64,000 nucleotides of DNA from Cyanophora paradoxa CCMP329 (Eukaryota; Plantae; Glaucophyta), in contig QPMI01000445.1 of NCBI GenBank assembly GCA_004431415.1, positions 1-64,000 on the forward strand, in the 5' to 3' direction. The notes under the pieces were generated by a model. It was not told where the DNA came from. It saw only the letters and a program-made list of their open reading frames with translations, and did not search any database. Positions 27,099 to 50,700 of the stretch are shown here, in pieces; position 1 is the first letter of the stretch; the number at the start of each line of letters is the position of its first letter. Position numbers and translations under genes: made by a program.

Positions 27099-27344
27099 TG
27101 GGTTTCTATAATGATAAACAGGGTAATTTACCTTTTTTATTACAATGGCAATCGTTAAAAAAGGATATAATATATCCTTTCCTACAATAGCTTTCTACAA
27201 TGATTTTCTTTCTACAGTAGCTTTTGTTACAATAGAATTCTACTGTATGATGTAGCCGAAATATGAATGCACCCTACATTAAGCAATGTCAAGTATTTCG
27301 AATACTATTCGATTTCCTTACAATAACACTCAGCATCTCCCCTT

Positions 27345-28161
27345 GATTCCCCCTATTATATTATATTTATATTTAAGTGGACTCAAGGTTGACTCATATT
27401 AATCGTAAAAGTAGTAAAAGTATATGGATTTTGTTACGAATTCAATGGGAGGGTTGACTAAGTGGGTTGAGTTGACTCAAATTTCACAGGAAATATTTGG
27501 GACCTAAAGTTTTCTAAAAAGGATTTGAAAAAATGTGTCAACTCCCCCCACTTAGTCAACCCTGACCATAAACAGTAAGGATTTGAGCTAACATGTATCA
27601 CAAAGTGAACATTTTGAGTCCACTTAGAAGATCCACTTTTGAAATCCAAGTTGATTTTGCTTGAAATTTCAAAGTTGATCTAAAAGTGAGTCCACCCTGA
27701 TTGATTATGGTAACAAAGTTGACTAAGTTGACTAAGTTGAGTCATCTTAAGAAATTCAAAGAGACTAAGAGTTCAAAATGTTTATGAAAAGTGAGTCAAC
27801 TTAGACCACTTATGATAACAAAGTTAAATATTTATTTGATTTAATCGGAAAAGAACATGATTTAATCGAATTTATTGATATAATTCCGATTAGATTCATT
27901 TAGGATTCAATTAAGATCAATCGAAGTTATTGATATAATTCCGATTAACTACAATTAAGATACAATATCGATTAATCGAGTTTATCGATATAACATCGAT
28001 TAAATTAATTGAAAATGCATTTACAAATATGAAAATTCATGTGAAAATTCAAATAAATTAATCGATTTTATTGATATAACATCGAATCACACATATGAAT
28101 ATTCATATTTTAATCCTGAGGCGGAACGCCGAGGGATTAAAATATGAATATTCATATGTGT
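27345..28161 (-). repeat. Right terminal inverted repeat (817 bp)
   Basis: Mirror of 1750-2565; ends ...CATATGTGT, followed by the TSD GGCGCA. Confidence 0.96.
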
Positions 28162-30068
28162 GGCGCAAAATCTCTTTCTCGCGATTGTGCACGAAGAGAA
28201 CGCAAGGGTGCCTCTCAACCTTTCCATCGATATCACGAACAATCGCAAGTCAGCCGCAGATTACAAATACTGATCATATGCATGCTGCCGATGAATTCTC
28301 GAGATCGCTTACCCGCTCGTCAAGCGTGTTCTTCTTCGCCGTCTTGCCAATGCGCGATGGATTACCGAAGACGATGAATCGATCCGGAAGGTCCTCGTGC
28401 AGCTTCTCGGCGACAGAATCAACAGCCTTGTTCCTCTGCTCGACCGGTTCGCAGTCAAAATCATAGATCAGTTAAAACGATAAATGATTAATATATGCGC
28501 GCGCGCATATGCACCGTGCACGTGACATGAACTCGTTCACTCAAGGGCACGCGCTGCTCGATGATGGACACGATTGTTGTGCTGCACGCATGCGCAGCTG
28601 ATTAAATGTCGTGCTAGCACTCGATTCATGATCACGAGTGCTATAGCTAGTGCTAGTGCCGCTGTACCTTTTTCCAGTTCCGGGAGGCCCTGCTTATCCA
28701 AAATTAAATCAGAACGCAACTTCAACGTCTGAATGTGAATCCGCATGCGCACCTTGGATGGACTCAAGATTGTACCGAAGACCCGACACGGCGGTCCGCT
28801 GCGAGGCGTTCATGCGAGCGGCGATGTGGCCGGCGTGCGAGTTCTCAGTCCAGCTCCCAAGAATGTGCTTGGAGGGGTTGATGACAGCGGAGATCAGGCT
28901 TTGGTCGAACGTGACCATGGGACCTGTATAGACCGGAGCGGCATGATTGGTGTGGAATAGCGGCGTGAGCGAGCTGTGAAGATGCGAGGTCTGCAGACGG
29001 CGAGGGCGGTCGCGCGCGGCGACCCCGCCGGCCAGATCGTTGGCCGCCTGATACTCGCGAACGTAGCTCCCAACGAAGCCCAGAGCCGTGGCGGGGAGCG
29101 GGCTCAAACCGAGGACGGACTCGAGAGACGGCTGCACGTCGACCCGGACCTGCGACAATTTCAGCTTATAATTATCCGCGATCGGACGGATTATATATAA
29201 TTATTTCTTCCAAAAGAACAATCGAAAAGCACCGTCGTGTCCTCGCGTTCGGTGTACGGGTCACGGCTGGTGGTCCGCGAGCGCTCGCGAGTGACGGCAT
29301 ACAGCCGCCGACCAATCACAAGAATGGACTGGCCGAAGTTCGCGAGGGGGGAGTCATTCTGCATGCAGAACAGAAACGTTAAAATATATTGATGGGAGAA
29401 GTTCTAATTACATATAAGGAGAGCCCCGGCCCCTGCACCTCGGAAGAGGATTCTCGCGATTGCTGATCGCGGTCATTTGTCGTCGACGCCGCGGACTGCG
29501 AGAAGGAGATGATGATGCCGCGCTCTTCTCCGTTCCCCCGCGACCGGTCATCCCAAGTGAGCTCTACCTCCGGAAACCGCACGCTCGCCCCGGAAGAAAG
29601 GGCGCCCCGTCCGCTGCTCTGACGATCGACGTGTTCTGCGTAGGGCTGTACATTTACACAGTGTTAAAAAGGAGCCCAAGAGACATCGCAATCGCATTTG
29701 CAAGGGAGACAAGTACAAACCTGGACCACTGCCGCGTAATACTCGGCGAGAATGTTGTTCGCGAGAGCTTCGCCGTACGCTTTTTCGCTATCGGGTCTCC
29801 GCTCGATCATCGCCAACTTCACAGGACCCTCTACGGTGAGAAAGGGCTCCCACATATCGGGGAGCGATCCGGGATTGTGCGGCTGCGGGCGCCAGCGCGG
29901 CCCGTCATTGAAGCGGTGGCTGCTGGAATGGCCAGAAGATGCGGAGTAGGGACGTGAGCCGCCGAAGCCGCCGCGAGAGCCGTAGCCGCCGCTGCGCGAG
30001 CCGTAGCTGCCGCCGGAAGAGCCATAGCCACTGCGGGCGCTACGCGGAGCCCACCCGCTGCGGTTCAT
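28162..30068 (-). CDS. Host SF1 helicase, 5' part (G/S/R-rich N-terminus, Walker A GPPGTGK), multi-exon
   Basis: GPPGTGK is encoded near 28670-28690. Removing the element and one TSD copy restores the frame ...VHNREKEILR|LLKCTDTRIKELM.... The start at 30068 (MNRSGWAPRSARSGYG) is tentative. Confidence 0.75.
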
Positions 30069-30464
30069 CGGATGAACGAACGAGGAGCGCCTGCGATGTC
30101 GATGTCGATGTTTAACTGCCTGCTAACTGCCAGCACTGCGGCACGTGCGATTCGTTCGAGTGAGATTTCGATCGAACGTTGACCGTTGACAGGTCTCCGG
30201 AAATTACAGTTGTACGCGTACCCCCCGGATCCATCCCATTATTATTTAATTACGCATATGAATCGATTTACGCATTGATTGATCATGCAGGTCGCGATCG
30301 AGAGTCGAGACTGAATGCAGGTCGCGATCGACAGGAATCGAATTGAGCAAGATGGAAGCGAGAAATGGGATATCTAACTTTAGAATGGAGGGGAGAAATT
30401 GCGTGAGGGGAGCAATTTCTCGACGTCGACGTCGTAGGGGGGGAGGAGGAGCAGGAGGTGGTGT

Positions 30465-30495
<31 letters not shown>

Positions 30496-30539
30496 GGGGG
30501 GGGGGGACGGGCGGGACGGGCGGGGCGGGACGGGCGGGG

Positions 30540-32175
30540 CTAGAGGGCCTGGTCGAGGGTGCCGGCGGCGGCGTAGAGGAAGTAGCGGTCGCCGGGCAGC
30601 AGCACGAGGGCCGCGTCGTGCTCCCCGCCCAGCAGCCGGCCCCGCCGCGCCCCCCCGAACGAGACCGGCGCCTCCCGCGCGCCCCACGTCGAGACCGCCG
30701 CGAAGGGCACGCGGCCGGCGTTCACGAGGGCCCGCAGCGGGTCGATGTAGGCCGCGGGGAGCGCGGGGGGCACGGGCCCCCGCCAGCGGATGCAGTGGCC
30801 GGCGCCCCCCGCCGCCCGCCGCAGGCCGCACTCGTACCCCGACACGAACTCGTCCGGCCGGTCCTCCTCCCGCCCGCTCAGCTCCCTGTACCCCGGTCCG
30901 AGTCGGCGGGGGGAGGGGCGGCGGGGGCCGGCAGAAGGCTGCGCACCCGACGAGGCGGCAGGAGACGAGGCCGAGCCACTCGAAGAGGTCGCTGTGGAAC
31001 TGCGGAGCCGCCACCGGCCCGTCCCGCTCCTCGTACTCGGGGACCCCCGACCCCGCCCCCTCCCCCTCACCGCCCCGCCGCCGCTTCCCTGCGGCGGCGC
31101 CCGGGGGCCGGTCCGGGGGCGGGGGCCGGGGCGGCTCGGGCGGGGGCAGGGCGGGCAGCGCGACGTCGCTCAGAGTCTCCTCCGTCCGCTGCAGCTCCAC
31201 GCGCTCCGCCGCCACGCCCGCCGGGAACGGGCCCAGCTCCGCGCTCGCCCCCGCTGCCCGCCCGTCAGAGCGGGGGAGGGGGATGAATGCCGGCAGGGGG
31301 TACCGGCGTCGGTGCGGTAGAGGAGGAGGTCGACGGGGGAGGTGCGCTGCGGGGAGAGGCTCCACTGGACGCGCTCGTAGAGGTTCTTGCCCGGCGCGAA
31401 GGACGGCGCCGCCACGTCCACCTCCACGTCTGCGCCGCGCTCGCCTCGGCGGGGCGGGCGGGGGGCGGGGCCGGGCGGACCGAAGCGCTGGCCGCGGAGG
31501 GGCTTGAAGGGGGAGGGGCGGCCCTGCAGCCCGAGGGCCTCGTAGGCGTCCTTCTCCAGCGAGAGGTGCAGCGTCCCCGGCGGGTACACCGCCACCACGT
31601 TCCCGTGGTCGATCGCCCCCGCGCTCGAGAGCGCGTACGTCGACCCTGCGCGGCGCCTCGGCCGGCGGCCGGCGGCGGCGGGCGGCGGTGCCGCGCGGGC
31701 GGGGCGCGGCGCACCGCCGTCGCGGGAGGCGAGAGAGGCGAGGAAGGGAGGTCGGAGGAGGGTCGCGAGGTGCGCCCGCACGCGGTAGTAGTAGTCTGTC
31801 CGCTGCGGCAGCCTGCCGCCGGCCCGCGTCGGCCGCCGCGCCGCGCCCGCGCCGCCGGCGAGCGCCGAGCGGTCGCACGCACCTCGAGAGAATGTCCGGG
31901 AGGCCCGGGTCGGAGAGCGTGCTCTGCAGCTGGGAGCGCAGGCAGGGAATGAAGACCTCGACCTGCGAGCGCGGCGAGGCGCGATCAGGTCGCGACGGAA
32001 CGCGCGTAGCTAGCGGGCGGGGTCCTTAGGAGCGTCGGACCTGCTCGAGGAAGTGGTGGCCGAGGATCGCATCCCGCGCCTTCGCCTTCGGGTGCGCGAA
32101 GGAGGATTCCCACACCTGCAGGCTCTTCGTCGGCAGCCACGCGTCCTTTCCGGACACGAGCTCCGGGTGCGGCAT
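30540..32175 (-). CDS. RPP40: RNase P/MRP subunit p40, multi-exon
   Basis: YALS..IDHGNVVAV..GTLHLSLEKDAYEALGLQG, LFEWLG, STWG..EAPVSF. Confidence 0.8.
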
Positions 32176-32354
32176 CTGCGACCTTGAGCTCGATGACTTG
32201 CTCTACCCCCCCTTCTTGGGTCGAAGCTCTTTTTGGCGGCGGGCCCCGCAGATGCAGCTGGTGCGTCTCACTGCTCTAGGCAAAACCCGTCCGATTCGCC
32301 AGTGACCACCGGCGCCGTCGATCGCAGGTCGATTGGGCGGTCGCCGCGCTCGCT

Positions 32355-34258
32355 ATGGGCGCATACGTGCGTTGACCGCCGTGCCGGCCGAGCGCGCTGC
32401 AAGCGACCGAGCTCACCGACAAGCCGCCCGCAGATCGCCCGGCGGCTGCGTGAAGGGGCCGGCGGCGGCCAAGCGGAGCGGGAGCTAGAGGCCGACGCTG
32501 GCGGTGCCGCGGCCGGCGCGGCGGCCCTCTCGGACGACGTGCTGCGGCTCGTCTTCGCGCACCTGTCGGACGACGCGCAGTCGCTCCTGGCCGCCTCGCA
32601 GGCCTGCCGCCGCTGGCGGGGCCTCCTGTCGCCCGAGGACGCGGCGTGGCGCGCGGCGCTGGGGCGGCAGTGGGGCGAGGCGGCGGCCGTGCACGCGGCG
32701 GAGGCCGAGGGCGGCGAGGGGCCGCTCGACCGCTCGTGGCGCACCGCCGTCGGCGGCGGCCCCGGCGGGACGGTGTGGAAGGCGCGGGCGCTGGCGCGGG
32801 GCCGGGCGCCGCACGCGCACCACGACGCCTTTCAGGCGGAGCTGGCGCGCGCCTGCGGCCGCCTCGCCGGCTTCCGCCTCCGCCTGCGCCTCGGGCCGGC
32901 CGCCGACGACGAGGGGCGGCCCGAGGACGGCTGCGAGGCCGACTGCGGGCCCGGCGCCTGGCGCGCCCACGCCGACTCCGTCTACGCCTCCTTCCCCCTC
33001 CCCGCGCCCTTCGTCCAGTCCCCCGCCTTCCGCTCCGGCGGCCTCCTCCGCGGCGCCCTGTACCCCCTCCCCGCGGGGGGCGCCCCCCTCCCGCCCGCGG
33101 CGGCCTTCTCGGCGCCGGTGTACCCCGGGGCGAGCACGGCGGAGCTGTGCCGCGGGGATTGCAGCGGGGCGCTGGTCGTCTCGGGCGATCGCGAGGCGGA
33201 GGCGGCAACGGTGCACCTGAGCGCCCACGGGCACCTCGTCCTGCGCGCCCTGCGCGGCGAGGCGCCCCCGCCCGCCGCGCCCCTCCCGCCCCTCTTCGGC
33301 GCGGCGGCCGCCGAGGACCTGGCCGAGGCGATCGCTGCGGGGCGGCCCGGGGACGCCGCCCCGCCGCCGCCGGCCGCGCCCGGCCCCGCTGCCTGCGCTG
33401 GTGGGAGGCCCCCTGGCCCCGCCCGGCGCCCCCGCCGCCGGCGAGCCGGCACCGCCGCCGGCCCCGGAGGAGAGCGAGGGGCCGCAGGAGGGCGGCCTCT
33501 TCGACCTGCTCGCGGCGCAGCTGGCGCGGGAGCGCGCGCGGCGCGCCTCGCCGCCCCGCGCCTCGCCGCCCGCGCCGCCGCCGTCTGGGGGTACACCCTC
33601 TACCTCGCGTTCCGGCCGGACTGCGGGGCGGCGGCGGCGGCCGGCGGGTGCGGCTGGGCGGCGGGCGGCTGGAGCGCGCGCCTCCGCCTCGCGGACGCGC
33701 TCTTCTCCTACGACCTCTCCTCCTACCTCGCCTGGCGGTGCGAAGTTCAAACTCGAAATCTTTCACCGCCGACGCGGGGGCAGGTTTGAGGTGCCGGCGG
33801 AGGATGCGCCGCGGGCGGGCGGGGCGGGCCCGCTGCGCTTCCCCTTCGGGTGGCACCTGCGGGACGCGACGCTGTACGGCGGCGGGGGCGAGCCGCTCCT
33901 CCTCTCCGCCAACGCCCCCGTCGTCGTCTCTGGCCCCGTGCGCCCCGCCCGTCCCGCCCCGCCCACCCGGCCGCCAATTCTTACAAGCGAGCAGCAGGGG
34001 CCGGGTGGGGCGCCGGTCTTCGCGGGGACCTTCTTCCTGCGGGTGGACGCCCCCGCCTCGGGCCCGCCGTCGGGGGCCGCCCCCGGGGCCTGGTGGGCCC
34101 GCACGGTGGCGGCGGTGCGCTACGAGTGGGACGCGGCGGCGGGGGCCGGCGCCGGGGCCCTCTGCCTCGAGCTCCGCGCCATGCCGGCCCTCGTCCACGC
34201 CCTCATCGCCCCGCCCGGGCCCCGCCCCCGCGAGCTCGACCCCGAGCTCGAGGCGTGA
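32355..34258 (+). CDS. F-box protein (C-terminus weakly FBXO15-like), multi-exon, start uncertain
   Basis: LSDDVLRLVFAHL..SLLAASQACRRWRGL F-box motif. Confidence 0.65.
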
Positions 34259-34327: not shown

Positions 34328-37300
34328 CTACCAGGCGGGAGCGGCTTGCCCCGCGGCGGGCCCCGGGGCGGGCGGGGGGAGGCCGAGGGTGCGGGCGCGG
34401 AGGGCGGAGAGGGCGCCGGCGAGGCGGGCGGCGACGCGGCGGGCGTCGGCGAGGGCGCAGTGGGGGAAGTCGGCCTTGGCGCGCCCCGGGGCCGCCTCGG
34501 CGCCCCGCTCCGCCGCCTCCTCCCGCGCCCGCCGCTCCGCCGCCACGCGCCGGTGGAACTCGCACCGGTCCTCCTCCCGCGCCGCCGGCCACGCGGGGAG
34601 CCTGCGCGCGCGCGTCTCGGGCCGGGGCCGGGGCGGTGCGGTCGGAGCGCGGGGCGGGGCGCGCACGAGTCGCGGGGTTGAGGCCGAGGAGGGCGCAGAG
34701 GGCGCCGAGGAGGGCGTCGGCGTCGACGAGGGGCGGGGCGCGCGCCTGCGGGCGCCCCGCGCGCCCCGCGAGGAACCGCAGCGCCTGGGCCTCCGTGCGG
34801 GGGTCCTTGGCGAGGAGCAGGCAGGCCCCCGGGGCGGGCGGGCGGGCGGCCGGCCAGCCCGAGGCGGCCGCCAGGCGCTCCCAGAGCTCCTCGGGGGCCG
34901 CCCCCCGCACGCCGGGCGGCAGCTCCTTGTAGGGGATCCCGTGCACCTGCCGCCCCGCCTGAGACAAGCACAAGGGGGGGGAGCTCGAAAGGGGTACACC
35001 TTCTTCCAGCGGTGGTTGGCGGAGTGGTGGGCCTCGGGGCTCTCGGGGAGCCAGGGCCCCGCGCAGAGCAGCGCGTGCTCCTCCGCCTCCGCCTCCGCCC
35101 GCACCGCCCCGCCCCCGCCCCCGCCCCAGGCGCGCAGGCGGAAGCGGGTGGCGCCGGCCTCGCAGGGGAAGGCGACGCGGAGGCCCCCCGGCCCCTCCGC
35201 CTCCCCCGCCGCCTCGAAGTCAAGGGCGAGCAGCGGGCCGGCCGCCACCAGCGCCGCGTCGGCCGCCGCCTCGTCCCGCGTCCGCACCGCCGCCGCGAGC
35301 ACCGTCGCGGCATCCTTGCACAGGTCCGCCGTCTCCTGCGCCGTCGCCTCGGGGATGGCCGGCGGCTCGGCGCGCACGAAGCCGGGCGCGGGGCGCCGCC
35401 GCTGCAGCTCGGCCGCCTCGCGCGCCGCCGCCTCGTCGCGCTCCTCCGCCTCCGCGAACGCCGCCGCCCCGCCGGCCGCCGCGCTGGCGGCGCCGCCGAT
35501 GCCGTAGCCGCGCTGGCGCCAGCCGGGGACGGGGTCGGCGAGGAAGGCGTCGAGCTCCTCCGGGGTGCGGGACGGGTCGAGGCGCCCGCCGTACTCCCGC
35601 GCGAGGCACTCGTGCACGAAGTACCCGAGCGGCGTCCACTGCAGGCCGCACGCGCAGCCGCCCGCACCCGCCCCCACCGAACCCGCCGGGGGCGGGTCGG
35701 GCTCGCAGAGCATGGCGGAGACGCCGGCGGCGGCGGCGAGGGCGTCGGCGAGCCAGTTGCGGTCGCGGTTCCACTCGAAGTCGCGCTTCGTCTCCGGCGC
35801 GAGCGCGGCGCGCAGCTCGTCGGCGGCGAGGCCCCCGAGGACTTGCGAGGCGTCGCGGAGGGGGCGCAGGAAGTCGAGATTCGCGTAGCGGGCGCGCACG
35901 ACGGTGGCGCGCGCCGCGGCCGTCTGGATGAGGTCGAGGGCGCCCGGGCCGGCGGCGGCGCCGGAGCGGAAGAAGGCGGCGTAGGAGTGGTACGCGACCG
36001 CGAGCTCGAGCGCCGCGTCGCCCACGAACGCCAGGCGGCCTGCGCGCAGAGGGTTTCGGCGAGGCGAGGCGAGCCGAGGCGAAGACGAGGCAAAGCAGGG
36101 GCGCACGGTTGTCGTAGGGGATCGCCGGGCGCCGCGCCTTCCGGAAGTGCGTCGCCGCCTGCGCGGGCGCCGCCGTCAGAGGCCGCGCGGGGCGGGGCGG
36201 GGCGGGGGCGGGCTGCGCGGACGGCGGTGAGGAGGCGTAGGGCGTCTTCGGGCGGCTGGCCCCCGAAGCAGAGGGCGCTCCAGAGCTCCCGCAGCACGCC
36301 GGCCTCCTCCGGCCTCAGCCACTCCGCCCCCGGCACCCGGTCTGCCCGCCGCGTCGGCCTCGGCTTCGGCCTCGGCCGGCGGGGGCGCGCGGCTGGGCGT
36401 GCGCGCGCACCGGCGCCGGTGGCGGCGAGGGCGGCGCGGAGCTGGCCGGGGGCGTCGAGGGCCTCGGGCAGGGGCCCCGCCTCGCGGCCCCGCAGGGCCA
36501 CCTCCAGCACGCGCCTCAGGGACGGGTCCAGGTCCTCCCGCCTGCGCCGGCGCGGCCGCCGCTCGCTCAGCGCGGGGGCGCGGCGCGGCGGCGGGCGGTC
36601 AAGGCGCGCCGGGAGGCGGGGCGGATGACGTAGCGGGCGGCGAAGGCGCGGCAGGCGGGCAGGCCCGAGTCAAGGTACAGCGCCCCTGCGCGCCGGCCGT
36701 CGGGCGCGGCGGGGAGGGCGGGCGGGGGGACGGGGGGCGGGGCGCGCCTGCGACGGCCTCGAGGGCGTCGGCGCGCATCGCCTGCGAGACGGCCTGCCGG
36801 TCCGCGCAGCGGAGGGCGCGGTCGAGCCCGAGGGCCTCCGCCGCCGCCGCCAGGCTCTCGTTCGAGACGCACTCCTGCGCGCACGCGCCGGCAACGTCAG
36901 CCGTCGCTCCGCTTCGCTTCGCCTGGCTGCGGGGGACCTCGGTGGCGGTGTGGAGGGCGAGGGGAGTGGCGTCGGCGGGGCGGGTGTGGTCGACGAGGGT
37001 GCGGCGGACGGCGTAGCGGAGTACGCGGTCGCCCAGGAACTCGAGCGCCTCCCCGCCCTGCTCGCCCCCGCACGCCGAGCTGTGCGTCAGGCTCGCCTCC
37101 AGCGCCCCCGGGTCCCTCAGCCGCAGGCCCAGCTCGCCCTCGAAGGCGGCGAGCACGCCGGCGAGCGCCGCGGCGCGCTCCATCTCGCGGCGGGCGCGCA
37201 GGAGGGCGGCCCCGAGGGCGTGCATCTGGGCGGTGAGGCCCGTCGGCACCCGCAGCGTCTCCGGCGCGTACACCGCCGCGTTCGCGCCCCCGCTCTCCGA

Positions 37301-37966
37301 GTAGGAGAGCGCCACGGGCTGGTTGGGGTCCTGCCGGGCCGGGCGTCAGCGCGAGGCGCTGGGCGGGGCGGGGGGGAGAAGGGCGCGCCTCGAGGACGAC
37401 GTTGCGGGGCTCCTCGGCGAGGTACTCGGCGAGGGTCACGCGGGGGCGCACTCGGGCGCGCCCGGCCGCCTTGCGGGGGTCGAGGGCCTGGACGGGCACG
37501 AGCTGCGCGCCCTCCTCGGCGCGCGTGCGGTACGTCGTCACGGCCATCGAGTCCTCCAGCATCTCCCGGAGGCGCGCGTAGCCGCGGCCCCGGCCCTCGC
37601 GCAGCGCCGCGAGCACCTCCTCGGGCCCGTACGAGTGGGCGCGCGCCGCCGCGAGGAGCGCCGCCGCGTCCTCGTCGGCGGCCTGGCGCCCGTCGGGCAG
37701 CGCGAAGCGCGGCCACAGGAAGCTCTGCCCGCGGCGCGTCGACGGAGGGGGGGCGGAGGAAGGGGCGGCGGGGCGGGGGCTGCGCACGTCGGCGATGAGG
37801 GCGCGGCCGTCGTCGTCCTTGGTGAGGGCGGCCGGCCAGCGCGGCATCGCCCCGCGCTCCGAGGGCGCGCAGGCCTCCCCGAAGAGGTTGTTGAAGTCCG
37901 CCAGCGCCGCCGCCGCCTCCTCGTCGAACTCCTGCGCGCGCGGCGCCGGGCGGTCTTAGAGGGGGA

Positions 37967-37998
<32 letters not shown>

Positions 37999-40900
37999 CG
38001 GCGCCTGGGGGCCGAGGTACTCGACGCGGATGTCGACTTCGAGGGGCCCGGCGGGCCCGCACAGGCTCCCCTTCAGCGCCGTCGCGAAGCGCAGCGGCCG
38101 CCGCCGCGTGTACAGGTCGTACCTGCCGCGGCGGCGCGTCAGGGAGGAAGGAGAGAGGACGCGGGCGGGCGGGGCGGGACGGGCCCGTCGAAGGCGGAGG
38201 CCTGGAGGTACTCTCGCGGGCGGCGCGGAAGGGGCGGGTCGACGGTCACGCGGTGCCGGTGCAGCGTACCCCGCCGCCCCGCCCCCGCGGCGCTCGAGGG
38301 GGCCGACGAGGCCGCCATCGGCGCCGCGACCGGGGGCGCCGGTACCGGGGCCGGGATCGCCGCCGCGGCCGGAACGAACGCTGGGGCTGGGGATGGGGCC
38401 GGGAATGGAGCCGCGGCTGGAACGAACGCTGGGGCTGGGGCCGGGATCGGCGCCGCGGCCGGAACGAACGCTGGGGCCGGGGCCGGGATCGGCGCCGCGG
38501 CTGGAACGAACGCTGGGGCTGGGGCCGGGATCGGCGCCGCGGCCGGAACGAACGCTAGGGCTGGGGCCGGGATCGGCGGGGCCGGGAGGGTGCGGCTCGG
38601 CCCGCCTGTCGTCATTGCAGCAGCTGCAGCTGCCGCAGCGGCGGCGGCGGCAGAGGCGGCCTGCGCGGCGGCTGGGGAGTAGCGAGGAAGGGGCGCCAGG
38701 GCGGGCGGCGGGCGCGGGGCGGCGGAGCCGTCGGCCAGCAGCGCGCTTAGAAGCTCCTCCTCCTCCGCGGGCGGGGCCGGCGCGGGGGCCGGCCGGGCCG
38801 CGCCGGGGCCGGGCCCAGGGTGCCCCTGCGGTGGCGGCCCGAAGAAGCTGAATGCCGGGGTGGCTTGCGCGGGCTGCGCGAGGGGCGCAGGCGCCCCCCA
38901 CAGGGGCGCCGAGGAGCCGGCGGGCGGGAGAGCCGTCAGGGGAGCCGGCGCGGAGCTGGCCGGTGGCGAGGGCCGGCCGGCGGGAGTAGACAATACAGCG
39001 GCCAGGGCGGCCGGGTTCGGAGGGGGGTACGCCGGGAGCGCCGGGGGGCGGTACGGCGCGGCCGGGCGGGGTGCGGGGGGCGCGTAGGGCCGCGGCTGCT
39101 GCGTCGACGCCGACGGCGGCGACGAGGCGGGGACCGGAGCGAGGGCGGGGATGGGGAGCGGGACAGAGGGCGGCGCATAGGGCAGGGGAGCCGCAGCCGA
39201 TGGGGCGGCTGGGGGCGGATAGACGAAGGGGACGGCAGGCGCGACGGGCCCCGGGGCGTGCGACGGCGCGATGGGATGGATTGGGAAGTGCCCAGCGGGA
39301 GGGTGCGCCGCTGCCGGGGGTAGAGGGTACGCCGCGGGAGGGGGAGGCGCGACGTAGGCAGGCGGAGGGGAGGGAACGAGGGCGGGGATCGGGAGGGGTA
39401 CGGCCGGAGCGGCGGGGTACGAGGGCGCCGCCGGCCAGGAGGCCGCTTGCTGAGGGACGAAAGGGGCGGGATAGGGGGCCGGGGCAGGGGCGGCGGGGGC
39501 GGGCGAAGGGGCGGGGACCGGTGCAGCGTGGGTGGTCCACGCGGCGGAGTACGCGGCTGGTGGTGGCCGCGGGGCCGCTTGCTGGGCAGGGTAAATGGCG
39601 GGAGGGGGGGCAGGTGCAGGGGCGGCGGGGGCGGGCGGCGGGGCGGGAGCCGGAGGGGCGGGGGCGCTCCGGCCGCCGGCGGCCGGGTCGCCGCTCTGAA
39701 CAAAACGCTCATCGGGCGCGCTGCCCTGCGGCGGGCCCGGCGGGTCCGCAGCCTCCGAGCGCGGCTCTTTGATCTCGCGGAAGTTCCTCTGCGGGGCGCC
39801 CCGGGCCGTCAGCTCGGGCGTGGTGCCAAAACCGTCTTTCAGGGGCCGGGCGCACGATCCTGAGGACGGGGCGGGGCCCGTCCTCCTCGTCGCTCGCGGC
39901 GCCCAAGTCCAGCGCCGCCGGCGCGCTCGAGGATGCGTCCGGTTCGGAGGGGTCCGGGGCGCCGCCCCACGCCTCCAGCATCCTGGGCCCCGCCTGCGGC
40001 CGCCGCTGCGGGCGCGGGCCGGGGCGGCAGCGGCCGTCGAGCGCCGCGAAGATGTCCTTCTCCGCCTCCTCCGCCTCCTCGGAGCGCGGGGAGGACTCGC
40101 CGGAGGACGGGTCGAAGAGGATGGCGGGGCCGTCGGGGTCGTACCCCATCCGCCGCTTCCGCTCTATCTGCTTCCGCCGCTTCTGCTCGATGTCCTCGCT
40201 CACCGGCACCGCCCGCCCTGCTCGCGGGATCCGTGAGGGCGCGGCGGGGCGGGGGGTCGGCGGGGAGGGGCGGGGGGGCACCGCCCAGGTCGGGCCCGAG
40301 GCCGACCTTGGGGGTCCAGCCGTGGCTCTCGAGGTGGCGGCGGGCGAGGGCGTGGGCGTCCCGCGGGGCCGGCGGCGCCTCCAGCTCCCGCTCCAGAGCC
40401 GCTAGCCCGTCTCGCGGCCGAGGCACCGGCCGCAGCCGCGCCAGCCAAGAGGTTGGCTTCGGGGCCGTTGGCGGAGCGAGGCCCGTTGCAGCCGCGTCCA
40501 CAGCAGGCGGAGAGAGCGGGGGAAGAGCAGCGTTTGGAGGAGGCAGGGGCGGAGCGGCGGGCGGAGCGGGCGCCGCTGCAGGGGCCTCGATGGCGTCCGG
40601 CGGGGGAAGAGGCCGGGTCCACGCGAGGGCCGCTGGCTGCGATAGAGCGAAAGCTGGGGCCGTCGTGAGCCCGATCGAAGGCGCCGACGAAGCGGAGTCG
40701 TGGGCGGCCGTCCAGGCGGCGGTAAGCGGACGGGGCGGGCCGGACGAGGAGGAAGAGGAGGGGGTGGAGGAGGCGCCCTCCGCGCCGGGCGACGGGTGCG
40801 GGCCGGGATCGCGGGGCTCGAGGTGGAGCCGTTGGGGCGCCTCCGCCTCGAAGAGCATGGCCGGCCAGCTCCCCTCCGACCCGCTCGAGCCGCCCTCTGC

Positions 40901-43900
40901 GCCGCCCTCGCCCTCGCCGCCGGCGTCGTCTTCGCCCTCCGCGGAGGGCTCCCACCTCGCGGCGCCCCCCTCCAGCCCGGAGCCGCCCTCCTCCTCCTCC
41001 TCCTCGTCCTCCTCCTCCTCGAGCGCCCGCCCTCCGTCGGCGTTGTCGGACTCCCCGCCGGCCTCCGGGGTCTCCCCCGCCGCCGTCTCGGCCCCGGCCC
41101 CGCCCCCCGCGAGCAGGCGGGCCAGGCTCTCCTGCAGCATCCGCCTCGCCTCCTCCGCCTCCTCCTCCTCCGCCTCCCGCGCCGCCGCCACCTCCACCTC
41201 CTCCTTGTCCTCCTCGGGGCCGCCGCGGGCGCCCTGGCCGCCGACCCTCAACTTCTCCTCCTCGTCCTCCTCGCCGTCGCGCCCTCCTTCGCCGCCGCCG
41301 CCGACGCCGTCCGACCCGCCACCGGCGCCGTCTGGCGTGCCGCCGCGCTCGGAGCCGCCCTGCCAGCCGCTCTCCGAGCTGGTGCTGCCCTCCGTCTCAC
41401 CATCGCGAGCCGATTCGCCGGCTTGCTCCGGCCCGCCGCCGGCGTCGTCATCGCGCGGGGGCTCCGGGGCGGCATTCGCTGCTTCGGGGGCGGCGGTCGA
41501 GGCGAGCAAGTCGGGCCCCGCCGGGCTTGCGGCCCTCCCGGCTGCAGGGGCGGCCTCCTCCGTGACGGGGGCAGCGGGAGGCTGTTCTGGCGGGCAGGCC
41601 GCGGCGCCGATGTCGTCGCGGGTGTCAGGAGCGCCGCCGGCATCGGCCGCGCCGTCGGCGGCCTCCTCGCGCAAGGCCGGCGCCGGCCCCCGAGCTCCGC
41701 CGCCGGCGCCTCGCGGAGGGCCGCCGCCGCCGCCGCCGCCTCTGCGGCACGGGCCACGGCTTCGGCGAGCGCCTCCTCCACAGCCGCCTCCACCTCCTCC
41801 GGCGAGGGGCCCGGCCCCGCGCCCGCCGACCCCGCCTCCCGCGCGGCTTCTTCTCCGCCGGCGCTGCGCTGAGCGGAGGCATCGGCCGCGAGCTCCTCCT
41901 CGATCTGATCGGCCTCGCCGGCCGCCCCCGCGGGCGCCGGCGCGGCCCGAGGCCGGCGCCCCCCCCGCCGCACCAGCGGCTCCTCCTCCTCGTTCTCCTC
42001 CTCGGGCGGCGGCTCCGGGAGCCCGACGCCAGCGCCGCTCACGCCACCCGCGCCGAAGTCCCGCGCGCGGCGGCTCGGCAGCCCAACGCCGGCGCCGCTC
42101 TCGCCGGCTCCGTCCAAATCGCCGTTGGCGTCAAAGAAGCTACCGCCAGGGCCTCCGTCGGGCTCGGCGCCGCCCGCCTCCTCCTCCTCGTCGCCCTCGC
42201 CCTCGCCGTCGTCGAGGAGGCCGTAGTCCTCGTCGTCCTCGGGGATGCCGGCCTCGCGCAGGAAGGCGAGCACCTCCTCCCGCTGCACCCGCCGCAGCGC
42301 CCGCATCATCTCCCGCCGCCTCGCCACCTCCTCCTCCATCTGCCCCGCCCGCCCCGTCGGCCCCCGCCGGCGCACTCGCGGCCGGCCGGCCGGCCCGCGG
42401 GGCGCGCGCACCTCGATGCTCTCGTGGATGGCGAGGACGCGGTCCCGCTCCTCGGCCTCCTGGGCGCTCGCCTTGAGCGTCTCCCTCAGCTGCCGCTCCT
42501 CCTCCTCCGCCGCCCGCCGCTCCTCCTCCGCCGCCAGCGCCAGCTCCTTCGACTCCTCGAGGATCTGCTGCAGCTCCTCCTCTGTCGGCACCCGCCAATC
42601 GTCCTGCGCCGGCGCCTGCGCCTGCGCCGCCGCCGCCCTCGCCCGCGCCTTCTTCGGCCTGCGGGCGCGCATCGGGGCGGGAAGGCCGGAGCGCCGGCGC
42701 CCGCCGGGGACGCACAGGGGGTCCACGGGCAGTGCGGAGAACGCCGAGGGCACCCCGAGCTCCTCGATGCCCCGGTTCGGCCTCAAGCGCCACTGCGCGC
42801 GGCGTGAGCTGCACGGGGCGGCGCGGCGGCGGCGGCGTCGGCGACGGGGCGCACGTCTTCGACGCGGCCGGCGGCGCGGTGGGGCGGGGCCAGGCTCGGG
42901 GAGGGGAAGGGGGCGGCGGGGTCGGGGTCGGGCTCGCGGGCGCGGGCGGCGTCGGCAGCGTCCTCGAGGAGGAGGAGCTCGGAGAGGCAGGTGACCTCCT
43001 TGGACTGCTCCAGGGCGAGCCGCAGCTCCTCCTCCTCCTCGGCGTCCCGCCTCGCCTCCTTCAGCGACTGCCGCAGCGCCTTCGCGAGCTGCGCGTCCCC
43101 GTCGCCCCCCGGCGCCACCCGCCGCCGCCTCGCCTCCGCCTCCGCCGTCCTCCGGCTCTCCACCTCCGCCGCCTTCAGCGCGAGCTCGATCGCGTCGACC
43201 TCGCCCCGGCGCGGGGCGGCGGCGCCCGCCGCCGGGCCCTGCCGCGCGGTCCCGGCTGTCGACGGCGGGCGCCCGCGGGCGGGGCCGGCGGGGGCGCTGC
43301 GCTCGAGCGGGGCGGTGGGGCGGCGCCCCTCTCCCACATGGGCGGCGGATTGGGCGCCGCGCTCGGTCGCACCGGAGCGGAGGAGCGGCCGGCGGCGGGG
43401 GCGCCCGGCAGAGCGGCGGCGGAGGACGAGGAGGGGAGATTGGGGGCAGCCGGAGGGTACGCGGGAGCCGGCGCTCGGGGGGCGGCGGGCTGGTAGAAAG
43501 AGGGCGGGGATTGCTGTGCAGGGTGTGTGGAGGGCTGTGATGCGCCGTGGACGGGCTGCTGTGGGACCGCCGCGGCGGCTGGCTGGGCTGGGGCGGAAGA
43601 GGCGGCATAGTGCGGCGCGGCGGTGCCAGAAGCCAGAGGGACCTGAGCCGGGGGAGGGGCGGCCGCGGAATGCGCAGGGTACGAGGCCGGCGGGGCTGCC
43701 GCCGGCCACGCAGAGGGCGAGGGCGACGAGCCGGGCGCGGGGCCGGGCGAGGGGCCGGGCGCGGGGCGCTGTGGGGGAGCGACGGGGCCCCACGCGGGGA
43801 GGGAAGGCGGCTGCGGCACGTGCACGGGCGGCGACTGGGCCGCGGGGCGTGCGGAGGCGGCTCCGGCGAGGGCGGCGGCGGCGGCCGGGAGCCCGAGGGC

Positions 43901-46900
43901 CCCGCCGCCGGTGCCGCGGAGGACGGGCCGGCCTCCTGCTCGGAGCGCCGGGCCGAGCCCGGCGGGTCGCGGAAGTCGGGGCCGTTCATGTAGAAGGGCC
44001 GCTCGTCGGGGGAGCCCCTCGGCGGCCCCGGCCGCCGCGAAGCCTGCGAAGGCTGCCTGCCCCAGCCCGAGTGGGGCCCGTTCTGCGCTGCACGGGTGAG
44101 CTGGGCCGCGAGTCTGGCGCGCGCCACAAGCGGGTGAATCTGGCGCGCACCATAAGCTCTGGATCTGGCCGGATGCAGGGCAAGCTCGAGGGGGGTGCAG
44201 GGTGCGCCCGGTCGGGTACGTTCCCTCGCGCCTTGGCGGGCTGCAAGCGGACGGGGATCAGCCACAAGGGCCGCGACCGGCAGCGGGGCGAGTGGGGCGC
44301 ACGTCCGCGACGCGGACGACGAGCTCGTGCGTGGCGGTGCAGCCGGACTGGACCACCTTCCCCCAGTACGCGTGCACCGAGATGAGATCCACTTTCTCAA
44401 ATTCTGGATCCAGCACGACGTCGTCTGGACTGGCGGTTGGAGGAGGAGAAGCGGGAATGGGGGCGGGGGGCGAGGGTCTGCACCGATGTTCTGCTGGGTC
44501 GCGTCCTCCTTCTTCAGCTCGCCCCCGCTCTGAGCTGCCTTCCTCACCTCGATGTCCAGGTCGGGCCACCTGCCGAGAGACACGCGAGTGCCCGTCAGGG
44601 AGAGGACCCGAACGCAACTCAGCCGGAGAGGGGCACCAGGCGATGAGGGGCTCGAGCCTGGAGGCAGGGGCCGGCACCGCAGACGTGCGAGATCAGAAGC
44701 AGCGCGTTGCAGGAAAGCAGAAAGAAGCGCACCCTAGGTCACGAAACATTTCGATGGACTCGACGTAGTGCTCAGTCACCTGCGTGTTCTGCCGCGGGCG
44801 TCACATGTATACAGGGGGCGGTGCAGCCACGCGGGGCCCGGGGCCGTGATCGCACGGTGATGGAGCCCGCATCGGGAAAGATGACGAGGCGTGTCGGGCG
44901 CGGGTTCAGGCTGCTCAAGATGGCGGCGATGTGCGGCCGGGAAGACTTGAAGTGGCCGCCGCAGCCGCTGCGAGGGGTTCAGACAGGCGGCTCGCCGCAG
45001 ATGCCTTTCTCGCGCACATTCCGGCACCAATCATCGGAATACCGAAGTAAACACACGTGATGAGGCTCTTGAGGCCGCCCTCGCTGGCCCCGATCCACCT
45101 GCGAGTCCATCGGATCGGTTCGAGAGACTGAAAATTAAATGAGAGGCAGGGGCGGGCCCTTCGTATCCGGGGCGCGTCTGCGTGGGCTGCCAGAAGAACG
45201 CCGGGGTGCAGAGTTCGCCGCCGACCTCCACCAGGTAGCTCGGGACCTCGTCCTTGTTGCCGCACGTGTAGTATTTGCTTCGCGTCTTCACGAACGTCCA
45301 GGGCTGTGCGGTTGCTTCAGGGCGAGGAGCTGGCGCGCACGCATAGCGCAGAGGCTCACCTTGATCATCCCACCGAGGATCCTGCCCCCTACGTCGAGGA
45401 CAGGGATGAACAGACCCTGCAGCGTTGACTGAGATAGGACAGGCGGGAGGCCGGGAGCCTAGCAAACAAGGGTGCGCGTACCTCCCAGTGGGAGCCGCGG
45501 AGACCAAGCACCTCGCCCTCGGCAGCGCCAGCATTCTCGGGGTCCAAGGGAATGTAGGCCGTGCCGGTGGCCCTTGGAAATTGGGGACGCTCATGATCAC
45601 TATCCCCTACAGAAACAGAAATCCAGGCCGGGGGCGTGCGCACGGGTTTGTCGAGAAGCCCGGCAGCTTTGCAAGATCGGCAGCAGCGCGCGAGCCCGAG
45701 GGTTCATGATCAGCGCGACTCGCAGAGGCCGCGTCCAAGTTCGCCACCAGCTGGGCGAGCTTGTCTTGGGTCAACTGCGGCCGCCAGATTCAATTATCCG
45801 ACCGAGCACTTGGAAGAGCGGGGCCCACCTCCCTGCTAAGCCAAGGCCTGATCGAGTCGGAGAACCTGACTGTCCTCTCCAGAAGCCGCCGGGTGAGACC
45901 GCGCGCCTTGAGCAAATCGAATTCAGCCCCAGGCACGCTGTATCTGGCGACGCTAATTCTGGCAGTCATCGCCCGGAGGACAGTTCGGAACTGTGCACCA
46001 CGCCATATGCATCCCAGGGTCACAAGGTTCCAGAGAGGCGCGCAAGGGATTCGGGTGGGTACAGGCGGGGCGCACGAGCTCGTCTCGGCGTTCGAGGGGG
46101 AGGATGTCTGAAGCGCGGACCCTCCTCAGAGGCTGGGCGAGGGTCTTCGTCACGCCGACGTGCACCGCCCGTATCCAGTCCCTTGTTCTTCGGATCTCGT
46201 CGGGGAAGTCCTCTGAAGGAACCAGATGAGCGGCGAGGCGGGATTCTTGAGCGAGGAAAAGCGATACGGACCCTGGTTCTCGCAGTCTTCAAAAGCCTCG
46301 ACAGCTTCTCTGATGGAACTTCGCATGCCAGCCTCGGACGGAAGAGAGAATTCTGCAAAGAACAAGTTTAACAAGGGACAGAATTGAAGTTGAAATCAAA
46401 GTCTCGCACGCTTGGGGTCAGCAACGCGGCGACCTTGAATTCGGCCTCCGGTTTGGATACCCATACAGCTGACGCATCCGTCGTACCACTTTCCGAACAC
46501 AGAGAGCTCTGCTCCGGCGTCAGATGTCTGGACGGACCTGGCGCGGCGCGATATACGCCTGGGCGCGCGCGCCGAAGCCGCGTCCGCGCTGGCAGCGGCG
46601 CTGCGGAGCTGGGGCTGCGGAGCTGGGGATTGAGGCGCACCGATTTCAACGACGATACCGAGAGTGGCATGCATCTTCTGTTTCGTACTGTTGCAGAAGG
46701 CGGACTTGATGTTGTCGTTCGTGATGAAGCGAACGCGCCGGATGCGCGGCGCGGGCTTCCCCCAGTTGTGGAAAACATCGATGCGGCTGAGCTGGAGGTG
46801 ACGATCGAGCTCGCCACACTGTCGACGTCGACGGCGCGTCATGCACGATCAGATTTCAGACCGTTCCTTGCTAATATAAGGAGCTTGAGGATGCGGCATG

Positions 46901-47259
46901 GAGCCGCACCTTGGTTGAACACGAGCCTGACAGGTCCTTTTTGTGCTGTCTGATGACGAGGTCCTTGAGCTCGCCCTGCGCTCGGTCCAGTCAGCGCGCT
47001 GGGGATGGATCTGCAAGCGGCGGCTGGCAGAAGAGCCTGGAATCGCTGCTCTAATCTCGTGCGAAACCTCCGGGCGTGTCGTACGCCGCGCTGCGCGGCC
47101 CGGCCCCCGCGGCCGTGCCCGTGCGCTCCTCATTCGCCGCGGAAGCGAAGCCGCTTCGCGCACCTCCCACAGCTTCACAAGCGCGTTCTTGATACGCTCA
47201 CTGTATCTCCAGTTCTCCGACGGCGACAGCGCGCCTTCGATGCGCTTGCGGGGCGCCAT
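34328..47259 (-). CDS. Dicer-like protein: UIMs, G-patch, platform/PAZ, RNase IIIa, degenerate RNase IIIb, Maelstrom/DEDDh-like exonuclease; 5' extent beyond ~44600 uncertain
   Basis: RNase IIIa: SLTHSS..EALEFLGD..ADALEA..ALYLDSG. RNase IIIb: ATH..YDNRRLAFVGD..LADALAA. PAZ-like: VTTY..TLAEY..DPNQP..APETL. Exonuclease: LDFE..PCE..HGIP..CEFH..PHCALAD. I checked the exon joins by hand between ~34.3 and ~40.3 kb. Confidence 0.75.
38345..38580 (-). repeat. ~5 x 42-bp coding minisatellite (IPAPAPAFVPAAAP)
   Basis: Read directly within the Pro/Ala-rich Dicer linker. Confidence 0.85.
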
Positions 47260-47779
47260 TCGTCTGCTATGATGACTGCTGCTAGTTTTCTGACGAGCCT
47301 GCGCCGCATTCTCCTCCAGGCGAATGTTGCTGGTGCCGCCAGAGCCCTATACCCCAACGATCTCGTTCGCCTCCGTACCCAGTAGTTCGCTGATCAAGTC
47401 GGAGCGCGGCCGGCTCTTCGACGATGTCGAAGAAGATCAAGGCCGGCCCCGGCGGGGTCGGCGAGATGCTGGACCTAAACAAAACGGAGCTCAACAGGTG
47501 GGGCTAACCGTCACTCCGCCCTCGACGCGACGCCGGCGAAGTCTGACCGCGTTGTAGTCTGCTTACGAAGTGGGACCGCTCGGTCAAGTCTCCTCTTTGC
47601 ACGACGCTCAAGGTTGGCATGGATAAGGACATCAAGGACTTCGGTTCGTGGCGCCCGGCGCCCCGCTGAGCAACACGCACCGCTGACGGCCGCCCGCGCT
47701 TCAACTCACAGATTGCTGCGGTAATGGTTCGTTGACGCCCGTCCGAGCTTCCGCACTTGCGCCGCTAACCGCCAGTTCG

Positions 47780-50700
47780 GCCAGGCGAGCTCAACGGGGA
47801 CGAGGAGGTGCCCGCCTGCGCGGCCCGGCGTTGCGTGTATCTGACCCTTCGTTCAGTGTGATCTGGGAGGGACGATGGTGCCTGGCGGCCTGAATGGCAG
47901 AGGCGAGTGGTCCGCGGCGATTCACTGGAGTACGAGCTGACGGGTCGCACGCAACACAGGGCAAAGCTGGGATATGCAGTGCACTGCCAAGTGCATGATC
48001 AAGCCTTTCTGCGGCGACGGCATCCGCGGGCCCAAGAACGTCGGCCACGACTGCGAGCAGTGCGTGTCGCGCCGCGCTTAGCTATCGCCCTGGGCTGGGC
48101 GCGGCTTGGAGCGAGCGGCGCGCAGGTGCGACGATGGGCCCAGCGGCAACGGGTTCGGCTTCTTCCAGAAGTGCGACAGCCTGTGCAACCTCAAGAACTA
48201 TTGTGGAGGTGCCGCGCGCCCCGCGCGCCCGGCGGCGGGGCCGGCGGCGGGCTCACGCGCCGCCGGCAGACGGCAAGATCGACTGGGGCAACGAGCCGAA
48301 CGCCGAGCGCATCGTCTACCGCAACTACAAGGAGAAGCCGGTCTTCGCGAACGGCTTCGACCACATCCAGAACAACAACAGTGCGCCCGCCCGCCCGCCC
48401 CGCGGGCCCCCGGGCCGAGCCGCGGCGGCAGAGGTGAACGTCGTGATCGAGAACGGCGTGGAGCGGCGCGAGCAGTGTGAGCGGCGCCCCCGCCCCCCGC
48501 CCTCCGGCCCCCGCTGCTCCTCGTCTCACCCGACGCGCGCGCAGGCGACGACGGTGCGCCCGCCGCCGGCCCGAGGAAGACCCGCGTCCGCGGGAGCCGC
48601 GGGCCGTGCCCGCTTAGCTAAGGGACCGCAGGCACCGCGAACGGCGGCATGGACAAGTGCACGCAGGAGTGCAGTGCGCCCGCTCGCCCCGCGCCCTGCC
48701 CCCCCCGATCGCGCTGACTTTCGTGCCGCAGAGGTTCCCGTCTGCGGAGGTGCACCCCGCCGGCTCTGCCGACGGCGCGGCCCGCGGCCCCGCGCCTGAC
48801 CGTGCCCCGCAGACAACCTGGTGAACCGCTCCGCCGAGCAGTGCGGTGCGCGCGCCCCGGCCGCGGCTCTTCTTCGGGGCGCCGACGGTGCGCCCCAGAC
48901 GACGGGAAGGCCAACGGGGCGATGGACAAGTGCACGGCGACCTGCCTGAAGCCCGTCTGCGGGTGCGCGCCGCCCCGCCGCTTCATTTTCCCCCCTCCAG
49001 CCCGCATCCAACCCGCGATCCGCAGCGATCAGATCGTCAACCGCTCCTCCGAGCAGTGTAAGGGCCTTCCCACGGGCGCCTCCGGGCTGCACGGCGCGCC
49101 GACGCCCGCCCGCCCTTCCCGCCGCAGGCGACGAGGGGGGCCTCAACGGGCAGATGGACCGGTGCGACGACCCGCCCCGCCGCCCCGCGCCCCGCCGCCG
49201 GCCTCACGGGCGGCCCGCAGGTGCACGAAGGACACGTGCCAGCTGCCCGTCTGCGGGTGCGCCCCGTCCCCCAAAGCGCGCTCGCGCTCGAGGCCGGCGG
49301 CTTACCCGCTCTCTCCCAGCGACGGCCTCGTTAACAAGTCGTTCGACGACGCACGCGGCCCCGCGGAGGAGTGCGGTGCGCTCGTCTCTTCCATACCCCC
49401 CTACCCCTCCTACCCCCCCCCTCCTCCCCCCCCCCACACCGCGTTGCCTCCCTCCACTTCCGTCGCCTATCCTCTTCAGATCCTCTTTCCCTACGCCTCT
49501 GCCTCCCTCCACTTCCTCCTCTTCTCCCCCCCCTCCTCCTCCTCCTCCTCCCCCCCCCCCCCCCCCCTCCTTTCCCCCGCCCTCGGTCACTCGGCCCGTC
49601 CTCACCGCTCACCCATCCCACCCCCGCCCATCCTTCCGCTTCTCCACTGCCTCTCGAGTCGCTGAAACCTGGCCGGCTCTCGCAGACGACGGCGGGATGA
49701 ACGGGCTGGCGAACAAGTGCACGGCGGCCTGCAAGGTCCCCGTCTGCGGGTGCGCCCCCCGTATCCGAGAGCGTCAAGCTCCCCTTGCTGATCCGGTGCA
49801 TGCAGCGACGGCCTCGTCAACCGCACAGTCCCTGACAACCGCGGCCCGGCGGAGCAATGCGGTGAGCTGCGCCGCGGCCCGACGAGTCGGGCGCTGGCTG
49901 GCCGCCGAGCTCGCGCCGCAGACGCGGGGCGCGCCAACGGGTCCATGGACACCTGCACGTCCTCCTGCCAGAACCCCGTCTGCGGGTGCGCCCCATGCGC
50001 GACTCCGCCGCCCCGCCACACTCACGTGCCCGCCCTCTCGTCAGCGATGGCCTCGTCAACCAGAAGTTCGAAGTCTGGTCAGCCTCCCGCGCCCCTTGCT
50101 CGCCCCTGCCCGCCGTGCTAATCCGCCCTGCAGCGACGACGGGTCGCTGAACGGGGAGCGCGACCGCTGCGTCGCGACGACCTGCCAGGTGCGGGGAGGG
50201 GCCCGCCGCGCGACCGCCTCGGCCCTCCTGTGACGCGCGCCGAGCAGCCCCCTCGCTGCGGCGACGGCCTGACCAACGCCACCGGTGCGCTGCGCCCGCC
50301 CCGGGCCGTCGCCCTCGAATCTTGACCCCCGGAGCCAGGCGAGGAGTGCGACGAGGGCGACAAGCTCAACGGGCAGAAGGACCACTGCACGGCCACCTGC
50401 AAGAAGCCCGTCTGCGGGTGCGCGCCGGCGTGTCGCTTTCCCTCCGGAAGGCGGCGCCACTGACCCGGTCCCGGTCCCGCAGCGACCAGCTCGTCAACCG
50501 CGCCGGGGAGCAGGTGCGGCGGGTCTTCGTCTTTGTCGCCCGCTTTCTTGAGTGACGCCGCCCCGCCTGCCTCCAGTGCGACGACGGCAACCAGAACGGC
50601 CAGATGGACAAGTGCATGATGAACACCTGCCAGGTGCGCCGGCCTTGCGGCGGGTCGCCGGCACCTCATGCTCACGCCCCGTGCAGCTGCCCACCTGCGG

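Follow-up and report, generated by a model that had tools for sequence, protein, structure and literature searches.

We analysed a 64,000-nucleotide (nt) stretch of DNA from the glaucophyte Cyanophora paradoxa CCMP329 (contig QPMI01000445.1, positions 1 to 64,000; hereafter the window), in which a long Dicer-like gene lies on the minus strand at 47259..34328. The gene is expressed and spliced, and likely encodes one protein of 3,514 amino acids (aa), with a probable plasmid-type primase core at its N-terminus and, towards its C-terminus, a pair of RNase III domains of which one has lost two catalytic glutamates.

Gene structure and expression

The open reading frame runs from an ATG at 47259 to a stop at 34328 over 35 exons and 34 introns, with bases supplied by RNA included. 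Of the 24 sequencing runs listed, 16 contain this locus, none of them recorded as RNA, and 7 were compared in detail; the runs were treated as cDNA because GT-AG and GC-AG introns are skipped in six of the seven compared (run X12 reads through introns and is DNA-like). Fifteen of 25 splice joints were listed, 14 of which lie in the Dicer-like gene, each present in all four runs (three samples from three studies) and including ten introns between 44083 and 47163. Support for the 34 modelled introns comes from several sources: 14 are listed joints in transcript-like runs; 11, in the 3' part of the gene, agree with the offsets seen in a contig of 3,810 nt; 8, in the primase region, were placed by reading frame, splice signals and calculations made by hand from depth bins (one of them, 45664-45600, being uncertain by a few residues); and one, a 62-nt phase-0 intron at 42793..42854 (minus strand) that is absent from the listed joints, was placed from its consensus ends and the frame that it keeps. 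Seven introns have GC donors, one of which was shown directly, and the GC-AG intron at 38184-38123 is among the listed joints; two other placements were rejected, a GT donor near 38211, since the RNA splices from the GC donor at 38184, and an intron at 35640-35700, through which the contigs read. Introns are short in this window of 60-80% GC, and the model includes a micro-exon of 21 nt at 44637-44657.

The assembly is short of one base each at 41686, 43271 and 43843. RNA contigs supply all three, so that three apparent frameshifts vanish, and a contig offset implies one further base near 34667. Gene callers applied to the assembly DNA would split the gene at these single-base gaps.

An earlier note on this DNA, made by a model from the sequence alone, had described an intron joining a Pro/Ala-rich linker to upstream exons with a G-patch and ubiquitin-interacting motifs (UIMs). 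That intron is real (minus strand 39855-39789, 67 nt, phase 0): its joint occurs in all four runs from the same three samples and studies, where the shorter flank of the joint measures 52-150 letters, and it has a GTGCGC donor, a CTGAC branch and a GCAG acceptor. In the spliced model the G-patch and UIM exons are joined in frame to the Pro/Ala linker and through it to the RNase III core, as the note had proposed. The extent given there to the gene was too small: its start lies about 4 kb further upstream than the noted stretch.

We consider it likely that a single gene spans 47259-34328. Speaking against this, no listed contig bridges the stretches at approximately 38440-38526, 39384-39638 and 42777-42902 and none spans the gene, and in-frame ATGs occur at 38615 and 38318 within the second Pro/Ala linker (a 1.6-kb exon at 38185..39788, minus strand). 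These unbridged stretches are the chief argument for two or three neighbouring genes on the same strand (primase-UIM, acidic-G-patch and RNase III), together with the absence of the 42854-42793 joint from the listed joints and the stops at 42785 and 39711 that the frames would meet if left unspliced. Such a split is nonetheless decidedly unlikely. The splice at 39855 is made and leaves no stop: past it, the first stop in frame is at 38141, a position within the following intron, and no other frame is open through the linker, so that a transcript ending within the linker would be without a stop codon. Contigs approach the stop at 42785 to within 7 nt from the downstream side, a single contig carries the primase exons together with the UIM exon, and no internal lower-GC spacer occurs such as flanks both ends of the gene. 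In run X1, five contigs tile the gene at similar depths (16-35). As for the contig breaks themselves, the stretch at 38440-38526 falls in a 42-bp tandem repeat (38347-38578), and the DNA-like run X12 is also fragmented across 34-44 kb, at about 80% GC, so breaks there need not mark transcript ends.

Domain content of the predicted protein

The N-terminus of the protein shows homology to the primase core found in a family of cyanobacterial plasmid proteins, probably those of the CyRepX type, and has a DnaG-type core (RNA-polymerase subdomain plus TOPRIM) at aa ~205-540 (44411..46120, minus strand). A pattern scan for this plasmid family returned 52 loci from genomes, most of them of cyanobacteria, and 2 from viruses. 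Among these 54 loci, 39 match the first 600 aa of the model at E ≤ 2e-4, and 6 still do so with the seed motif masked. A profile built from 35 family N-termini scores 54.8 bits over aa 349-511 (21.0 bits when masked), compared with 2.0 bits at most in 500 shuffles (loci of two unpublished genomes, L215 and L244, were excluded from all profiles); 120 of 120 family proteins match at E ≤ 1e-3, and the exons of the model align to the family in order. In a tree of 36 rows (30 of the 120 family proteins, pSYSX, four DnaG proteins and the model), the model groups with the family against DnaG (100/100), on a long branch. CyRepA/DUF3854 and chromosomal DnaG were rejected as sources of the N-terminus, as their profiles score 0.1 and -2.5 bits on it. 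The helicase-like and helix-turn-helix (HTH) parts of CyRepX find no match in the model (a full-length family profile hits aa 417-509 only), and tblastn of one exon against plasmids gave matches at chance level only.

The CyRepX-type family is found in 86 plasmid records, of which the 40 rows listed are all cyanobacterial, and its N-terminal part carries no Pfam or NCBIfam name. One member, a pSYSX gene at 27957-31322 (254 bits), probably corresponds, judging by its position, to slr6031, the gene of the proven replication protein CyRepX1 (PMC10899382). For CyRepX, the passages of PMC10899382 consulted describe only helicase-like regions and no primase domain. In our analysis, the predicted structure of a family N-terminus (L053:1634-2833; pLDDT 86.5) resembles the RNA-polymerase domain of DnaG (Foldseek E 1.4e-6; Z 16.7, rmsd 4.6, 255 aligned), and the CyRepX-type N-terminus is accordingly modelled as a DnaG primase core preceded by a Cys-rich region. 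The predicted catalytic residues E423 and D476 are kept in the Cyanophora model, and D536 probably is; primase activity is putative here, as it is for the family. A plasmid-like primase has also been reported in a glaucophyte plastid (PMC6330054).

The two RNase III domains lie in tandem, as expected of a Dicer. RNase IIIa (36639..37141, minus strand) retains all four catalytic acids (E2781, D2785, D2851 and E2854), and RNase IIIb (35705..36234, minus strand) retains two of the four (D2991 and D3082), its two catalytic Glu being replaced by Ala (A2987 and A3085). The letters of the IIIb exon are identical in contigs of X1, X3 and X4 (0 other letters). A profile of 24 bacterial RNase III proteins scores IIIa at 40.9 bits and IIIb at 12.0 bits, and Pfam PF00636 stays under its cut-off on single exons. 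A PAZ-like segment and connector helix (37223..37523, minus strand) were recognized by eye from their resemblance to a PAZ consensus; the only locus that a scan with a PAZ pattern returned is unrelated, PDB searches with the IIIb exon and a PAZ half were uninformative, and a single-sequence fold of 35000-36037 (pLDDT 42.8) was not used.

The whole 3,514-aa model is free of Walker A, DExH and motif VI patterns, which bears out the absence of DExD/H motifs reported in the earlier note; one DExD-like string lies in an acidic linker. Judged from its sequence, the N-terminal helicase of a canonical Dicer is replaced in position by the putative primase core. The description of the gene as a helicase-less Dicer holds for the missing helicase and the RNase III pair, and falls short in that the protein also has a primase-type N-terminus, a IIIb domain without both glutamates and probably a DEDDh domain. 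The protein is Dicer-like rather than a Dicer: it resembles a minimal Dicer but is without two intact RNase III sites.

The C-terminal ~260 aa constitute a probable, degenerate DEDDh 3'-5' exonuclease (34403..35242, minus strand; D3257-x-E3259, H3471 and D3476). An ordered-block score, built from 14 of 38 reference proteins, exceeds those of 1,500 of 1,500 shuffles (z 4.1) and of all 23 other windows of the protein and lies within the range of 17 ERI-1-like proteins; it is driven by ExoI and ExoIII, with ExoII placed by eye only. A regular-expression test for the exonuclease (0 of 20,000 shuffles) was not counted, as it was designed after the sequence had been seen.

Between the primase core and the RNase III pair lie a first Pro/Ala-rich linker (43218..44171, holding the assembly gaps at 43843 and 43271), UIM 1 (43053..43106), UIM 2 (42993..43043), a third UIM-like helix (42541..42591), an acidic low-complexity region (40820..42423, holding the gap at 41686) and a degenerate G-patch (40138..40360), all on the minus strand. 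Of the UIM-like helices noted previously, two, with cores at aa 939 and 960, match the UIM core pattern (acidic lead-in, then hydrophobic-x-x-Ala-hydrophobic-x-x-Ser; P ~0.001 for two in the shuffled region), with a Pfam UIM (PF02809) score of 15.5 bits, under the 21-bit cut-off; the third fails the pattern, having Ile for the conserved Ala. Pfam and NCBIfam scans of the upstream exons otherwise gave nothing useful.

The G-patch motif seen previously is present above chance, in a degenerate form split by a 64-nt intron (40281-40218) whose joint is found in all four runs. Once spliced, it follows the Helix-GW-x-GLG-x-G-x-P pattern of G-patches (PF01585) and scores 15.9 bits on a G-patch profile, compared with 6.0 bits for the best of 2,000 shuffles and 51-79 bits for family members (self-included). 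The profile comprises 83 metagenomic segments, of which 20 of 20 checked are Pfam PF01585, and this reference set was chosen by a similar pattern, which favours the match. With the NKRF-DHX15 structure (PMC7132122) as reference, the motif keeps equivalents of L559, W564 and L569 of NKRF, brace-helix residues of the main binding site, and its C-terminal brace loop is displaced or absent. A PDB search with a G-patch half was uninformative, and a prediction that paired the 5' half of the G-patch with a Prp43-like stand-in (score 0.14 against a mark of 0.34) weighs neither way. The stand-in comes from a giant-virus contig that encodes a full-length Prp43/DHX15-like DEAH helicase, named by eye (L260:745-2706, minus strand).

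Genomic context

A low-GC (31-41%) element at 1745-28166, bounded by inverted repeats some 840 bp long at its termini (1745-2581 and 27329-28166), lies 6 kb from the Dicer-like gene. It encodes an rve integrase-like open reading frame (ORF), a protein-primed DNA polymerase B, a DUF5906 helicase-like ORF, a PriCT-2 ORF, an A32 packaging ATPase, a patatin and tail-repeat proteins, together with capsid-like ORFs recognized by eye, and is interpreted as a protist virus of the Polinton-like kind that has integrated here. An Rpp40-like gene (RNase P/MRP subunit; PF08584, E 4.4e-21) occupies approximately 30300-32000 on the minus strand, and an F-box gene (32197-34258, plus strand) converges on the Dicer-like gene, a contig of which reaches 33995 or beyond and so overlaps the last F-box coding exon by more than 260 nt, possibly as a natural antisense pair. 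On the other side, a divergent spliced gene (~47400-50300, plus strand; joint near 47495-47556) encodes repeated Cys-rich units.

Proposed mechanism and alternatives

Starting from the domain content, the splicing and the loss of two IIIb glutamates, we propose, tentatively and with a probability of roughly 45%, that the protein is a Dicer-derived RNA-silencing enzyme that would nick a duplex RNA in one of its strands and release that strand via a DEAH helicase recruited by the G-patch. As in Dicer biology, the PAZ-like domain would hold a 3' end and IIIa and IIIb would pair within the chain; with four of four catalytic residues in IIIa and two of four in IIIb, only IIIa is predicted to cut, and the strand nicked would be the one whose 3' end PAZ holds, an assignment in line with what is established for Dicers. 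Nicking alone leaves a duplex together, and the need for unwinding would give the G-patch a purpose: a helicase of the Prp43/DHX15 type, bound in trans, would unwind the nicked duplex. The DEDDh-like domain may then trim or remove the other strand to leave a single-stranded small RNA, and the UIMs may tether the enzyme to ubiquitinated partners. A helicase recruited in trans and a targeting to ubiquitinated chromatin or ribonucleoproteins had been put forward as possibilities in the earlier note. In the least sure step, the plasmid-derived primase core would bind nucleic acid and might make the short complementary RNA of the duplex.

Several observations weigh against this proposal. In the primase core, the second Asp of the DnaG DxD motif is Gly, as it is throughout the CyRepX-type family, the downstream acidic pair is probably Asn and Asp (the alignment is unsure), so that probably one more Asp is lost, and there is neither a recognisable zinc-binding domain nor a match to the Cys region of the family, only a lone CxxC at aa ~124-127. 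No tool found the PAZ domain, the intron-split halves of which have no Pfam, PDB or Atlas match. In the G-patch, Ala and His stand where NKRF has G555 and M562, and the score lies far under those of family members. The DEDDh region was picked by eye, and whole-domain profiles, ERI-1-like and bacterial alike, are not significant on it (in one case 4.5 bits, rank 6 of 1,001). Finally, no homologue with this layout was found in the single-exon searches described below, so conservation backs no step.

Among the alternatives, a role on chromatin or RNA:DNA hybrids instead of post-transcriptional silencing is unlikely. Here the primase would lay RNA on single-stranded DNA, IIIa would cut that RNA, and helicase and exonuclease would clear it, all around one protein. 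DnaG-type cores do use DNA templates, a single active site fits a hybrid, and the UIMs and acidic region fit chromatin; the Polinton-like element 6 kb away could be added, although it proves only that such DNA has invaded the genome. RNase III domains, however, prefer double-stranded RNA, and the PAZ-like segment suggests end-measured dicing. Also unlikely is a fuller role for the primase, in which the core acquired from a cyanobacterial plasmid would make RNA de novo on DNA or RNA, the one RNase III site would size it, the helicase free it and the exonuclease trim it, yielding guide RNAs without an RNA-dependent RNA polymerase or double cleavage. Quite unlikely is a dimer that dices both strands through two IIIa domains pairing in trans, with IIIb, primase core and G-patch as structural parts or relics; IIIa does resemble bacterial RNase III and Dicer IIIb, which are capable of homodimers, and all the accessory domains are degenerate, but RNase III domains arranged in tandem ordinarily pair with each other in the same chain, and the primase core, despite its long branch, retains most invariant residues. 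A factor in ribosomal-RNA or ribonucleoprotein processing, akin to G-patch adaptors linking DHX15 with an exonuclease, would match the combination of G-patch and nuclease seen with NKRF but would leave the tandem RNase III with its PAZ-like segment and the primase core unexplained, and is very improbable.

Relation to known systems

Searches with exons of the Dicer part gave 0 of 7,993 candidates, 0 in 1.84 billion representatives, 0 of 7,999 and no usable Atlas match, an absence that is weak evidence, as these searches used single divergent exons and the sets of 7,993 and 7,999 consist of proteins of at most 2,000 aa. No fusion like that of the Cyanophora protein is described in the titles and abstract openings that our literature search covered, supplements and most subscription papers lying outside it. 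In Cyanophora itself, 21-nt, often antisense exonic small RNAs have been reported (PMC3700990).

Helicase-less Dicers are known, for example in Giardia (PMC10328071). The Cyanophora protein is like the Giardia minimal Dicer (PDB 2FFL; PMC10328071) in that it has no helicase, no C-terminal double-stranded RNA-binding domain was found and a PAZ-like segment precedes the tandem RNase III domains; unlike it, the protein has a IIIb domain without both catalytic glutamates, 2,450 additional N-terminal residues (primase core, UIMs and G-patch) and a probable C-terminal exonuclease. With CyRepX (Slr6031/Slr6090; PMC10899382) it shares the putative primase core, in which most invariant residues are kept, but only that core, without the helicase-like and HTH parts, and in a nuclear gene with many introns. 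The helicase position of a Dicer-like gene thus appears to be occupied by a primase core from a bacterial plasmid.

Comparable functions occur elsewhere in separate partners. TOUGH is a plant G-patch partner of DCL1 (PMC7154892), and in both TOUGH and NKRF (PMC7132122) a G-patch is tied to a dicing or nuclease complex, as it would be here; unlike in those separate proteins, the Cyanophora G-patch lies within the RNase III chain and is degenerate. TbRIF4 and Neurospora QIP are DEDDh exonucleases that convert duplex small interfering RNAs to single strands (PMC3359990), acting as separate proteins with Argonaute, whereas here a weakly supported domain is fused behind RNase IIIb. Both functions, G-patch and DEDDh exonuclease, are thus apparently built into one chain.

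The Ala positions of RNase IIIb correspond to E1705 and E1813, hotspots of IIIb mutation in human DICER1 (PMC6695490), in which IIIb mutants, for example at E1813, lose 5p products and keep 3p products (PMC6695490); unlike those mutations, the alanines here are the natural sequence of an expressed gene. The protein looks like a natural one-strand Dicer, a state known from human DICER1 tumours, and, if its primase is active, would be a new source of silencing RNA, in which a plasmid gene would have been recruited into eukaryotic RNA silencing.

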